Sequence record: NC_135728.1
Strand: one strand, 5' to 3'
DNA from: a phage
DNA length: 64,000 nt
A program made the translations under genes and the position numbers. A model generated the notes under the pieces. The model saw nothing but the letters and a program-made list of their open reading frames with translations. It had not been told where the DNA came from and did no database searches. This document shows, piece after piece, positions 58,879 through 62,764 of this stretch. Within the stretch, counting starts at the first letter, position 1, and each line of letters begins with the position of its first letter.

Positions 58879-58948
58879 AAGCTTTACCCCTCAAAACAGT
58901 ATAACAAAATAGCCCTCGTGTTAGAGGGCTAGTATCTCCGATTAATCT

Positions 58949-58980: not shown

Positions 58981-60069
58981 TTAGATAAAACGCTTGAACA
59001 TAGAAGGTGATGAGATTGATGGAATCACACAAGGAAGTGCTACCTCCTCTTTCTCCAGGAAATTAATTGCAGAAGCTACACAGTCAGCCCAGTCGTCTTT
59101 TCTGTTAAATGTTGATCTTTCCCCGTTGAATTTTTCAAGTTCGGTCAGAAATGCTTCCAGAGTATCAGGATGGAAACTGGATTTTACAATCCTCACCATC
59201 CCTTGTTGGGCAAGATTGGCAAAAGGTGAGAACCTTGTCAGTTTAGACTTGTTGGAAGGCATTGGGTCTTCTTCAACCCTGAACCCTTCTGCGAGCAAGG
59301 ATCTGGATGAGGTTAAGAACTCACTCTTACCTGCCTGACCAGGGTCCACAGAGAATACGATTATGCAATCATCACCATCAAACTGCGCCTGTTTCCTGAT
59401 GATCACATCTCGTTCACCAGCCTTTTTACAGAACTTGCCTTCCAGACCTGTGGAATACCTCCCGTCATCCACGTTTTCAGGACAATAATCCCCTGACAGG
59501 TAATAAAAGCCGTCGCTATCTTTACTTACCTTAATACTGGCAGTAAAGTCAGGAAATTTATTGCCAGAAGTTCTCTCGGTTCCTGCCTTATCCCATGCCC
59601 TGCAAGATACTGATCCAAGGGGTACTCTATCGGCATCACGAAGGAAAGATCTTTGAAAATAGTTTGCACCCTCAGGCTTTGCAAACCAGTTACCATGGAG
59701 AAGCTGAGCTTTTTCCAGCTCTGGTAGACCTTCGAGGAAAGCAAGGTATTCTGGGTTGTCTCTCAAACAGACAGGATTATCAAATATTGTTGCGCCTATG
59801 AACGAGAATGACAACGGTCTTGGCTTGATCTCTACACCCAGTCCGTTAACCGTGGTGTATTTCTCTATCAACTCTTCCTTAGAGTCTCCCCAAATAAATT
59901 CACCGTCGCGTCGGATAAAATATCTTTTCTTACCACATTTCTCCGGATCTGGATACCCTTCATCGTCCAACCACCATCTAACCAGTTTGGCAAGCATGTG
60001 TTCTGAATCAGGGTTACAGCTGATAACCATCCTTGATGGATACTTTGACTGAGATCGCAGACGAGACAT
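58981..60069 (-). CDS. terminase large subunit, exon 2 (nuclease domain); 5' boundary approximate
   Basis: Continues the ATPase exon after the intron; Asp/Glu-rich RNase-H-like C-terminal region; the real 3' splice site lies within about 50 nt upstream of the ATG at 60069. Confidence 0.7.
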   Translation of the reverse strand: MSRLRSQSKYPSRMVISCNPDSEHMLAKLVRWWLDDEGYPDPEKCGKKRYFIRRDGEFIWGDSKEELIEKYTTVNGLGVEIKPRPLSFSFIGATIFDNPVCLRDNPEYLAFLEGLPELEKAQLLHGNWFAKPEGANYFQRSFLRDADRVPLGSVSCRAWDKAGTERTSGNKFPDFTASIKVSKDSDGFYYLSGDYCPENVDDGRYSTGLEGKFCKKAGERDVIIRKQAQFDGDDCIIVFSVDPGQAGKSEFLTSSRSLLAEGFRVEEDPMPSNKSKLTRFSPFANLAQQGMVRIVKSSFHPDTLEAFLTELEKFNGERSTFNRKDDWADCVASAINFLEKEEVALPCVIPSISSPSMFKRFI

Positions 60070-60418
60070 CAGATAGTCTATCTGCTCCCATTCAAATTGT
60101 GTCGTTTATGTTCGGGCAAGGTCGCTAGTCTTGCCCCGCCATTTTCAGGCAGCTGCATGTCTCCATGCAGACCAGACTATATCTTATAAGCGACAACAAC
60201 CGCTTACCCTCCCGTTTCGAATCGCTTGATTCTACGTCTCTCGACTAGTCGTTGAACGTTCATCCTCTCGGATGCTTCGCTGCGGATTATCTAAATTAAC
60301 ACACTGTTACCCTACCTTCGATCTCTCTTCGAAGCCTCTATCATGTTACCATGACAGGTTGGTGGTGTCAATAATAAAGATTTCCCCGCAATTAGGGAGG
60401 TTTTACGAGAGCTGCAAA
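60070..60418 (-). ncRNA. group I self-splicing intron (ORF-less) in the terminase large subunit gene
   Basis: In mRNA sense, conserved core elements in canonical order: P AAUUGCGGGGAAA (60393-60381), Q AAUCCGCAGC (60288-60279), R GUUCAACGACUAGUC (60257-60243), S AAGAUAUAGUCU (60185-60174); in-frame TAA right after the exon-1 GGU. Confidence 0.8.
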
Positions 60419-60847
60419 TTAACCCTCATCGAAGCAAACCATGGTGTACTCAAGCCCCTGATGGTTAAGCTTATCTTGTACATACTCCATGTGGCAGTAT
60501 TTTACAACAGCTCCCTTTTTGCTTCTATCCCACTTACCAGTGTTCGGATCAAACCGTGGAAAAATGAACTTATGATCCTTCTCTCTGAACTTTGGCTTAA
60601 TGTTTTCAGGCAGATCACTATAAATAGCTACTGCTTTAGGCCATAGTCCACCCTCACCTTCCAACTGTGGGGTTGTTCTTCGGAACATAACCACAGAGCT
60701 GTGGGGGTCATCAATAATTTTAAGTGGCATCAACTGCAAGAGGAACGACTTGCCAGACCCTGCGGCACCTCCGATTACCAAAATATCTGCATCGTTTTCT
60801 AGGATCATCTTCTGCTTTTCAGAACACGGTCCGTAAATCTTAGACAT
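60419..60847 (-). CDS. terminase large subunit, exon 1 (ATPase domain)
   Basis: Walker A GGAAGSGKS and Walker B MVCFDEG; ORF ends ...GAU GAG GGU UAA at 60422/60419, with the stop probably intronic. Confidence 0.75.
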   Translation of the reverse strand: MSKIYGPCSEKQKMILENDADILVIGGAAGSGKSFLLQLMPLKIIDDPHSSVVMFRRTTPQLEGEGGLWPKAVAIYSDLPENIKPKFREKDHKFIFPRFDPNTGKWDRSKKGAVVKYCHMEYVQDKLNHQGLEYTMVCFDEG

Positions 60848-61950: not shown

Positions 61951-62027
61951 TGGTCTCCACGGAGTGATTCGAACACTCGACCTCCTGATCCCAAATCAGG
62001 CGCTCTACCAAGCTGAGCTACGCGGAG
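61951..62027 (-). tRNA. tRNA-Pro (anticodon UGG), CCA encoded
   Basis: Manual cloverleaf: acceptor CUCCGCG/CGUGGAG (C1-G72), D-arm GCUC/GAGC, anticodon loop UUUGGGA, T-loop UUCGAAU. Confidence 0.8.
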
Positions 62028-62038
62028 TATTTATAATT

Positions 62039-62113
62039 TGGTGGCCCTGGGTGGAATTGAACCACCATCTGGCGATTATGAGTCGCTTGCTTGAACCTTC
62101 CAGCTACAGGGCC
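62039..62113 (-). tRNA. tRNA-Met (anticodon CAU; elongator or Ile-lysidine type not resolved), CCA encoded
   Basis: Acceptor GGCCCUG/CAGGGCC, anticodon loop CUCAUAA, T-arm GGUGG-UUCAAUU-CCACC. Confidence 0.7.
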
Positions 62114-62114
62114 A

Positions 62115-62190
62115 TGGTGCTGATGGCAGGACTTGAACCTGCAACCTATTGATTACAAATCAATTGCACTGCCAATTGTGCTACATCAGC
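62115..62190 (-). tRNA. tRNA-Thr (anticodon UGU), CCA encoded
   Basis: Acceptor GCUGAUG/CAUCAGC, D-stem GCAC/GUGC, anticodon stem AUUGA/UCAAU, loop UUUGUAA, T-loop UUCAAGU. Confidence 0.8.
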
Positions 62191-62195
62191 AAAAA

Positions 62196-62294
62196 GGTGC
62201 TAGGCGGTGGAATCGAACCACCTATGTATTCAACGACTACCTCGTCTATTTTCAGGATTAAAAATCCTCGCCCTTGCCAAAGGGCTTACCTAGC
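62196..62294 (-). ncRNA. atypical tRNA-like element (~99 nt), possible disrupted tRNA-Lys(UUU) or stable tRNA-like RNA
   Basis: Canonical T-arm GGUGG-UUCGAUU-CCACC and acceptor GCUAGGU/GCCUAGC, but ~30 nt of extra sequence between the anticodon-like hairpin (AGGA-UUUUUAA-UCCU) and the T-arm; no encoded CCA. Confidence 0.4.
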
Positions 62295-62392
62295 TCAGTA
62301 TGTTGACCATGTTGCTAGTCGGCGATGACGACTGTAACATTTGATAATCCGGTTCTGCTTCCGGCTTTCGCTTAATTACAAGGTCAACAATG

Positions 62393-62483
62393 TGGCGGAG
62401 AGTAATGGAATCGAACCATCATCGAGTCATCCTCAATGGGACGGTTTTCAAGACCGCTTGAGCACCATTGCTCCCTACCCTCC
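62393..62483 (-). tRNA. tRNA-Ser (anticodon UGA), type II with long variable arm, CCA encoded
   Basis: Acceptor GGAGGGU/ACUCUCC, anticodon stem GCGGU/ACCGU, loop CUUGAAA, ~20-nt variable arm, T-loop UUCGAUU, discriminator G. Confidence 0.75.
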
Positions 62484-62598
62484 TTTATAAATTATACTGA
62501 TAATGACACTGATTTTCGAGCAGTTAGTGACTAGTATAAACGACGATAAATATCAATGCCATTATCTGTATTATTTACGCATCTAAAAAATATAAATT

Positions 62599-62685
62599 TG
62601 GTGGGGAGTGGTGGAGTCGAACCACCCGAGTCGCAATGACAATAGATTTACAGTCTACACCGCTACCTCTACGGGATAACTCCCC
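62599..62685 (-). tRNA. tRNA-Tyr (anticodon GUA), type II, CCA encoded
   Basis: Acceptor GGGGAGU/ACUCCCC, anticodon stem GUAGA/UCUAU, loop CUGUAAA, ~15-nt variable arm, T-loop UUCGACU. Confidence 0.75.
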
Positions 62686-62689
62686 AATT

Positions 62690-62764
62690 TGGCACCCCGT
62701 ACTGGACTCGAACCAGTGTCAACGGCTTAGAAGGCCGCTGCTTTATCCACTAAGCTAACAGGGC
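62690..62764 (-). tRNA. tRNA-Arg (anticodon UCU), CCA encoded
   Basis: Acceptor GCCCUGU/ACGGGGU (two G-U pairs), D-arm GCUU/AAGC, anticodon stem GCGGC/GCCGU, loop CUUCUAA, T-loop UUCGAGU. Confidence 0.75.

Follow-up and report, generated by a model that had tools for sequence, protein, structure and literature searches.

Group I introns interrupting the phage gene for the terminase large subunit (TerL) have been known since their first report, in 1995, from Lactobacillus phage LL-H, according to the citation given in PMC3606486, and have been documented experimentally in Pectobacterium phage CB7 (PMC7344957) and in the Bastillevirinae (PMC11878797); in phage SIOphi, TerL splicing was shown both in vitro and in vivo (PMC3606486; PMC11878797). 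Closest to the locus considered here are the introns of Escherichia coli phage rV5, in whose GenBank record (DQ832317) the TerL coding sequence is joined from three pieces (ORF64ABC). Kropinski et al. (2013; PMC3606486) included a section entitled "Introns in terminase" and thanked D. Shub for help in locating the intron, and the records of the BASEL phages annotate the same joins (PMC8594841). In this study, we examined a stretch of phage DNA of 64,000 nucleotides (nt) (sequence record NC_135728.1; hereafter the 64-kb window), in which positions 60421..60103 of the minus strand very probably constitute a td-like group I intron of subgroup IA, devoid of any open reading frame (ORF) and predicted to be spliced out of the TerL transcript so as to yield the full-length protein. 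The intron is already known, being annotated or published for rV5 (2006/2013) and for relatives at the same site, and the remaining value of the analysis lies in the exact coordinates for this window and in the note of public records that are mis-annotated.

The DNA derives from an rV5-like myophage of E. coli belonging to Vequintavirus, as the 2.1 kb round the locus exhibit 98.9% identity to vB_EcoM-Pr121LW and 97-98% identity to rV5 and many others. The first TerL intron of rV5 (DQ832317, ORF64ABC; PMC3606486) shares with the window copy the gene, the site and the ORF-less form of 319 nt, and the BASEL phages JohannBauhin and RudolfGeigy hold ORF-less copies annotated with their exons joined. 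Identity to these copies lies in the 96-99% range (99.4% for the RudolfGeigy copy), and the differences are exclusively point differences, several of them compensatory in helices. The rV5 and RudolfGeigy copies reach Rfam scores of 84.9 and 84.0 bits, respectively.

A BLAST search with the intron alone retrieved diverged relatives in phiKZ-like Pseudomonas phages, in the T4 td gene, in the DNA polymerase gene of JLBYU08 and in TerL of Bacillus phage phiAGATE. The td intron, which self-splices and serves as the archetype of subgroup IA2, is likewise a phage group I intron with P7.1 and P7.2 helices; its P7 is identical to that of the window intron, and the two exhibit ~82% identity over the last 80 nt, from the P7 3' strand through P9, P9.1 and P9.2 to the 3' splice site. 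It also starts with GGU|UAAUU, placing an in-frame stop straight after the GGU that ends the exon. The td intron differs in its host gene, which encodes thymidylate synthase, in possessing P2 and in carrying I-TevI (GIY-YIG) in P6; moreover, the 5' two-thirds (P3-P6) of the two introns could not be aligned by BLAST, the window copy bearing there a P5abc-type extension and no ORF. In CB7 (Certrevirus, Vequintavirinae), the homologous terminase is interrupted in the same Walker B motif, 6 nt upstream of the window site (GVD|EGTQF against DEG|TQF), by an intron with a related td-like 3' domain (GAUAUAGUCUGAUCU...GAACAAAAAUG) and an HNH ORF located in the P6 region, ahead of the 5' strand of P7; with the core divided by this ORF, the Rfam score of the intron is no more than 35 bits.

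The introns of the phiKZ-like Pseudomonas phages SL2, PA7 and U5 exhibit ~73% identity over intron nt 130-316 (P6 to P9.2) and resemble the window copy in form, being ORF-less and compact (84 bits on Rfam), but they reside in a gene for a hypothetical protein in another phage family and have a short P5 hairpin in place of P5abc as well as different P7.1 and P8 stems. The TerL intron of phiAGATE is similar only in its 3' 78 nt (79.5%). More generally, the TerL introns of phages with Gram-positive hosts offer a precedent for a terminase dependent on group I splicing, at insertion sites unrelated to the present one. The introns of SL2, JLBYU08 and phiAGATE reach the Rfam gathering score of 50 bits for the group I model (60-84 bits), whereas td falls below it because its ORF interrupts the core. 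As a separate observation, JLBYU08 (OK272482.1) is a Vequintavirus in which TerL is intron-less and the DNA polymerase gene harbors another group I intron (1385-1673; 72.5 bits), the P6-P7 core of which is 92% identical over ~50 nt to the window TerL intron; a polymerase intron of this type is absent from the 64-kb window.

Intron boundaries and the restored terminase frame

A minus-strand match to the Rfam model of the group I catalytic intron (RF00028) extends over 60457..60153 and takes in the complete model (positions 1-253 of 253), at 79.4 bits and E = 1.6e-18. This result agrees with an earlier model-made reading of the DNA letters alone (hereafter the sequence-only reading), which had proposed an ORF-less group I intron splitting TerL and had suggested a covariance-model scan as a check. 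When the entire window was scanned against all of Rfam, this match was the single intron found, and at a permissive threshold (E <= 1) no second intron appeared in the 64 kb. The limits of the match were not used as intron ends: 36 nt of exon 1 were made to fill the P1/P2 positions of the model, and the match ends 50 nt before the 3' splice site, leaving out P9.1 and P9.2.

The ends were set instead by an intron-less allele in combination with the rule that, in group I chemistry, a U must precede the 5' splice site and the intron must terminate in G. Intron-less relatives were found by tblastn with the predicted spliced peptide, which matched in one uninterrupted piece; in bov25_3, TerL is a single coding sequence (CDS) of 1548 nt. 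In the nucleotide alignment, bov25_3 reads TTC GAT GAG GGC ACG CAG TTC GAA and the window TTC GAT GAG GGT (319 nt) ACA CAA TTT GAA, and the gap therefore places the intron at 60421..60103. Only this register gives a U before the 5' splice site together with a G at the intron 3' end, the terminal (omega) G being 60103 and the 3' splice site lying directly after it (..AUAAACG|ACACAA). Sliding both junctions by -1 (GAG GG|G ACA), which would also encode E-G-T, was rejected, because it would leave G as the last base of the 5' exon and C as that of the intron.

Exon 1 (60422..60847, minus strand; 426 nt, amino acids (aa) 1-142) was delimited by the ORF list, the alignment to the intron-less allele and the spliced translation. 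Its ORF (60847..60419, minus strand; 142 aa) contains Walker A GGAAGSGKS and Walker B MVCFDE-G and has MVCFDEG at its C-terminus; the last sense codon, GGT (60424-60422), is followed by an in-frame TAA at 60421-60419. Both motifs and the in-frame TAA had been described in the sequence-only reading. Its observation that the gap lacks a coding frame was also confirmed, all three sense frames being full of stop codons. Exon 2 (58981..60102, minus strand; 1122 nt with the stop codon, aa 143-515) provides the rest of the ATPase domain and the RNaseH-like nuclease domain. It starts at 60102 (ACA CAA TTT...), 33 nt upstream of the ATG at 60069 from which the ORF list calls a second terminase-like ORF extending to 58981 on the minus strand, and it supplies the conserved TQFEWEQIDYL. 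The interval first proposed for the intron was 60418..60070, but the true limits are 60421..60103, and the 3' end had been misplaced by 33 nt because 60070 came from the ATG chosen by the ORF finder.

With the intron removed, exon 1 (60847..60422) and exon 2 (60102..58981) together comprise 1548 nt, encoding 515 aa, and precise excision thus restores an intact TerL reading frame. The spliced protein and the bov25_3 TerL are identical in 515 of 515 residues, and the 39 nucleotide differences between their coding sequences are silent without exception (39/39); the alignment of the exon translations to an intact homolog, which had been put forward as a further check, consequently recovers a natural uninterrupted terminase. 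In the bov25_3 protein, Pfam placed Terminase_6N at aa 25-294 (E = 6.2e-20) and Terminase_6C at aa 394-489 (E = 5.1e-06), and spliced TerL exhibits both hallmarks of a T4-type large terminase, namely an N-terminal ATPase domain with Walker A and B and a C-terminal RNaseH-like nuclease domain. The insertion point, after residue 142, is within the ATPase domain and immediately C-terminal to Walker B (..MVCFDEG|TQFEWEQ..), which contradicts the earlier statement that the nuclease domain resumes after the gap.

Ribozyme architecture and covariation

The intron folds with -113.8 kcal/mol (z = -5.27), and none of 100 dinucleotide shuffles was as good. The helices recovered by unconstrained folding were P1 (its U.G wobble coinciding with the 5' splice site), P3, P4, P5abc, P6a, P7.2, P8, P9 and P9.2. 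The core elements P (AAUUGCGGGGAAA, 60393-60381), Q (AAUCCGCAGC, 60288-60279), R (GUUCAACGACUAGUC, 60257-60243) and S (AAGAUAUAGUCU, 60185-60174) were all located on the minus strand, to which the positions given below also refer, in the canonical 5'-to-3' order that had been reported; the expected pairing of P with Q into P4 was recovered by the fold, by Rfam and by the alignments, and that of R with S into P7 (GACUA/UAGUC) was placed from the alignment of introns.

In both the minimum free energy and the centroid folds, P1 (60405..60429) pairs the 5' exon AUGAGGGU (60429-60422) with the internal guide GCUCUCGU (60412-60405), setting the splice-site U60422 against G60412 as a U.G wobble at a site fixed independently by the intron-less allele. 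P2 is absent, and AAAA alone links P1 to P3, whose strands CCUCCC (60395..60400) and GGGAGG (60208..60213) were placed by fold and alignment. P4 pairs UGCGGG (60385..60390; Rfam and fold), within element P, with UCCGCA (60281..60286; Rfam, fold and alignment), within element Q. Between them, the fold displays P5 (AUCU/AGAU) with a three-way extension (60289..60381) comprising P5a (UUGACAC/GUGUUAA), P5b (CUGUCAUG-GUAA-CAUGAUAG, with a GNRA loop) and P5c (CUUCGA/UCGAAG). Rfam and the fold agree on the P6a hairpin, CAUCC-GAGA-GGAUG (60261..60274). The pseudoknotted P7 brings together GACUA in element R (60246..60250) and UAGUC in element S (60175..60179), the latter placed from the alignment of introns. 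P7.1 (GUC-GAGA-GAC) and P7.2 (GAAUC-AAGC-GAUUC) are found by folding between P7 and the P3 3' strand (60219..60245), and so is the P8 hairpin UAAGCG-GUUGUUGU-CGCUUA (60187..60206); P9 (CUGCAUG-GAGA-CAUGCAG), P9.1 (CUGCC/GGCGG) and P9.2 (GGCAAG/CUUGCC) complete the structure (60115..60170), as judged from td identity and covariation. A promoter-like TTGACA-17 nt-TAACAT with an extended -10 TG (10/12 matches) overlaps P5a/P5b at 60343-60371 and is probably fortuitous; six promoter-like sites were found in the region against 4.8 +/- 2.3 expected from shuffles, with no excess inside the intron.

P7.1 and P7.2 mark subgroup IA in the established classification (Michel and Westhof). Judged by these helices and by the P7 and 3' domain shared with td, the predicted ribozyme is a td-like intron of subgroup IA. 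A tentative finer placement in IA2, which is a heterogeneous subgroup (PMC11878797), would rest on the ~82% td identity of the 3' 80 nt and on the identical P7, the 5' part not being td-like.

The Klebsiella and Raoultella relatives (60-80% DNA identity) have an uninterrupted TerL here and were unusable for covariation, and diverged introns from other genes and phages were therefore used. Pairs were counted in an alignment of seven related phage introns for P7, P7.2, P9, P9.1 and P9.2 only, because MAFFT failed to align the 5' halves of the diverged introns, the P5abc extension being unique to the Vequintavirus copy; P3, P4, P7.1 and P8 were judged by reading the alignments. Standard pairs occupied 92.3% of the cells, compared with 28-39% when the partners were slid by 1-3 columns, a control that is somewhat flattering since the structure was derived from one of the seven introns; these seven, three of them near-identical, also constitute a small sample. 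Eight pairs had changed on both sides, these double-sided changes falling in independent introns, and none of 500 shuffles reached the observed pairing, double-change or covariation values. All five pairs of P7 are invariant in the seven introns, while P7.2 covaries (GAAUC/GAUUC against CACUC/GAGUG), as do P9, P9.1 and P9.2.

According to the alignment reading, P3, P4, P7.1 and P8 are retained as helices with different sequences. P3 reads CCUCUC/GGGAGG in SL2, CCUCUU/GGGAGG in JLBYU08 and CUCCCU/AGGGAG in phiAGATE, and P4 reads UGCUG/CAGCA in both SL2 and phiAGATE, a compensatory change of G-C to U-A. Every compared intron has a P7.1 hairpin of differing sequence; among the near-identical copies, the loop of this helix reads GAGA in the window and GAAA in relatives, each being of the GNRA type. 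The P6a of phiAGATE is a different stem (CCUC/GAGG), and the HdK5-type P8 is an unrelated stem (GAAUGUG...CACAUUC) that still pairs. Among the close copies, that of rV5 has a compensatory double change of C-G to U-A in P5b, and that of JohannBauhin exhibits changes of G.U to A-U and of C-G to U.G in P5a. From these aligned sequences, it appears evident that the ribozyme is under structural selection.

Such selection is hard to reconcile with a truly split gene, in which the insert would stay in the RNA and the terminase would consist of aa 1-142 plus a product initiated at ATG 60069. This arrangement would be analogous to the mobE-split NrdA of Aeromonas phage Aeh1, and it could draw on the in-frame stop that ends exon 1, on an ATG situated 33 nt into exon 2, on the promoter-like TTGACA-17-TAACAT inside the intron and on the non-splicing HNH insertion reported in CB7 (PMC7344957). 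Against it stand the full-length ribozyme match with its covariation and the U.G/omega-G junction that restores exactly the uninterrupted protein. No Shine-Dalgarno sequence is suitably placed ahead of ATG 60069, a GGGAG upstream of it ending 15 nt away; a protein initiated at this codon would miss the conserved TQFEWEQIDYL, the break would fall within the Terminase_6N ATPase fold, and the promoter-like sites do not exceed the shuffle expectation. We consider a split gene highly improbable.

Predicted splicing of the terminase transcript

The analysis shows the ribozyme match, the junction geometry and a spliced product that equals the protein of a naturally uninterrupted allele, and from these we infer the splicing chemistry and the self-sufficiency of the RNA. 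TerL would presumably be co-transcribed with the abutting upstream spanin genes, and the intron RNA would fold into the ribozyme of P1 and P3-P9.2. Free guanosine would then attack after U60422, held in the U.G wobble by the internal guide, and the freed 3'-OH of exon 1 would attack after the terminal G60103, ligating GAG GGU to ACA CAA and producing the mRNA for the 515-aa TerL. Unspliced RNA, in turn, would yield a 142-aa fragment only, because intron nt 1-3 (60419..60421, minus strand) are an in-frame UAA that ends translation after aa 142. Functional terminase, and hence DNA packaging, would depend on splicing.

TerL is indispensable for packaging, and phages with this intron have been isolated as plaque-forming viruses, as their sequence records indicate. 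The related TerL intron of CB7 was shown to be spliced by reverse transcription PCR and sequencing of complementary DNA (PMC7344957). The locus would represent one more well-supported case of phage DNA packaging dependent on RNA self-splicing, with nothing new in kind.

Several points weigh against this reading. In the literature searched, RNA data for this phage or for any Vequintavirus were not found. P2 is absent from the window intron, and no convincing P10 with the 3' exon could be drawn by eye, the only candidates being offset pairings of 3-4 bp between exon CAA or AAUU and intron nt 2-7, none of them adjoining P1. Many group I introns can dispense with P10. Finally, certain Bastillevirinae introns, that of phiAGATE TerL among them, are spliced in vivo and not in vitro (PMC11878797), and because some phage TerL introns behave in this manner, self-splicing by RNA alone is not guaranteed.

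These same features bear on the alternative of a genuine intron that splices in the cell but needs a protein or RNA chaperone or particular GTP or Mg conditions, possibly also acting as a timing or energy gate on the terminase. Such dependence would fit the lack of P2 and of an obvious P10 and would parallel phiAGATE, where the introns of TerL, polymerase and ribonucleotide reductase are all spliced in vivo and not in vitro (PMC11878797); the authors of that study proposed a GTP-sensing "molecular on-switch". The window intron, however, has a complete and canonical core and a 3' domain close to that of the self-splicing td intron. Peripheral GNRA loops and a P5abc usually stabilize the RNA unaided. 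On balance, we regard a chaperone-dependent or gated intron as unlikely, albeit with some claim to attention, and favor an RNA that would splice by itself.

Intron states among relatives and neighboring features

The copy in the window represents one of several states of the TerL gene in Vequintavirus. An uninterrupted junction, defined by an 80-nt probe matching in one piece, was present in 64 of 115 Vequintavirus-type records, and ~62 records hold the intron at >=90% identity, so that roughly half of the sequenced relatives carry it. An endonuclease-bearing form of this intron occupies the identical site in HdK5, inoa, navn, nomo, DrSchubert and others: its 5' 234 nt and 3' 130 nt are identical to the window copy, and a 196-aa ORF of the Endonuclease_7 family (PF02945, E = 2e-21) resides in the P8 loop, which in the window is short and ORF-less. 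The sequence-only reading had presented the lack of an endonuclease as typical of compact phage introns; this copy indeed has no ORF, but the absence is a property of the allele, as its siblings show. With all sense frames closed, the window intron lacks the endonuclease ORF of a mobile (homing) intron, and this copy would be unable to home by itself.

Both rV5 and RudolfGeigy additionally hold a second TerL intron at the GATIFDN site. The corresponding position in the window (59781-59792, minus strand; GCA ACA ATA TTT GAT AAT, near 59787) is unoccupied. The intron at this second site contains an HNH ORF in rV5 and SophiaRose (~980 bp) and is ORF-less in RudolfGeigy (268 nt; 95.6 bits on Rfam). 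Together, the empty site, the ORF-less intron, the endonuclease-bearing intron and the second site form a natural series within Vequintavirus that is useful for studying intron gain, loss and homing-site immunity.

The exon flanks (60413-60432 and 60090-60102) also differ between alleles. Four of the 39 silent differences from bov25_3 lie at consecutive third codon positions, -1, +3, +6 and +9 of the junction; at least four differences within 24 nt have a hypergeometric probability of ~0.0025, for a region chosen after the data had been seen. The junction reads GGT|ACA in 4/4 sampled intron-bearing alleles and GGC|ACG in 5/5 sampled intron-less ones. A U at -1 is needed for P1, and the differences at +3, +6 and +9 would fit co-conversion or homing-site divergence. 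It is conceivable, although we hold it to be doubtful, that the ORF-less copy, instead of being carried along passively, is one state of an ongoing intron/anti-intron polymorphism of Vequintavirus terminase genes. The P8-encoded Endonuclease-VII-type enzyme of siblings would then mobilize ORF-less copies in trans at co-infection, and empty alleles would be selected for resistance to cleavage. GTP-dependent splicing might, in addition, gate the onset of packaging.

In V18 (NC_041937.1), the intron-less TerL exhibits an 8-bp duplication (GGTTTGCTT...) at ~1440-1460, exactly at the insertion site, together with a missing G (GAGGC for GAGGGC), and the gene is annotated as two terminase CDSs; the anomaly may reflect faulty sequencing or, alternatively, a scar left by repair at an endonuclease target. 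This frame-breaking duplication and the absence of a homing-endonuclease ORF from the window copy are what could be adduced for a decaying, splicing-dead relic, the TerL allele being then a pseudogene in a defective or mis-assembled genome. Such a relic would sit poorly with a core in which every helix is intact, with 96-99% conservation of the intron across many independently isolated plaque-forming phages, with the compensatory nature of the existing variation and with exon differences from the intron-less allele that are all silent, and we find it scarcely credible.

In the records of the closest public relatives, Pr121LW and HdK5, TerL is split into two to five separate CDSs or hypothetical proteins. 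An essential gene appears as two "terminase" fragments in Pr121LW, HdK5 and V18 because ORF callers split it. The correct product would be one 515-aa protein joined at 60422|60102, and the annotation errors in Pr121LW and HdK5 are correctable.

Two further groups of records exhibit the polymorphism. Eighteen records within MG065635-MG065684, labeled as "Campylobacter phage" (C2, C15, A12a, D1 etc.), are 97-98.5% identical to the locus and display the same variation in intron presence; an erroneous Campylobacter jejuni host label or, alternatively, contaminated preparations are the probable reason. The rV5 "ev" phages likewise differ in intron state (LR597647 and LR694165 against LR694610, LR694611 and LR699804; ev147/156 against ev168/158/146), some being uninterrupted and others containing the intron with the Endonuclease_7 ORF. 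The copy in rV5 itself is ORF-less, and the pattern suggests recombination or intron turnover among co-cultured relatives.

Elsewhere in the window, a cluster of seven tRNA genes (61951-62764) includes a 99-nt candidate at 62196-62294 (minus strand) that ARAGORN reports as "tRNA-???" with a 4-base anticodon (atcc). Its acceptor stem and T-arm (GGUGGUUCGAUUCCACC) are well formed, the extra arm is long and the anticodon loop (UUUUUAA) is unusual, and its tRNA-Sec-like Rfam score is weak (30.8 bits, E = 0.042); six tRNAs are annotated in the rV5 record, in which the equivalent interval is left blank. Around TerL itself, two spanin genes abut it upstream, the stop codon of the o-spanin overlapping the TerL ATG at 60847. 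Downstream, the portal gene is preceded by an intrinsic terminator-like hairpin with a T-run (58910..58931, minus strand), which the promoter/terminator scan located just past the TerL stop codon and which matches in position a Rho-independent terminator annotated in the rV5 record.

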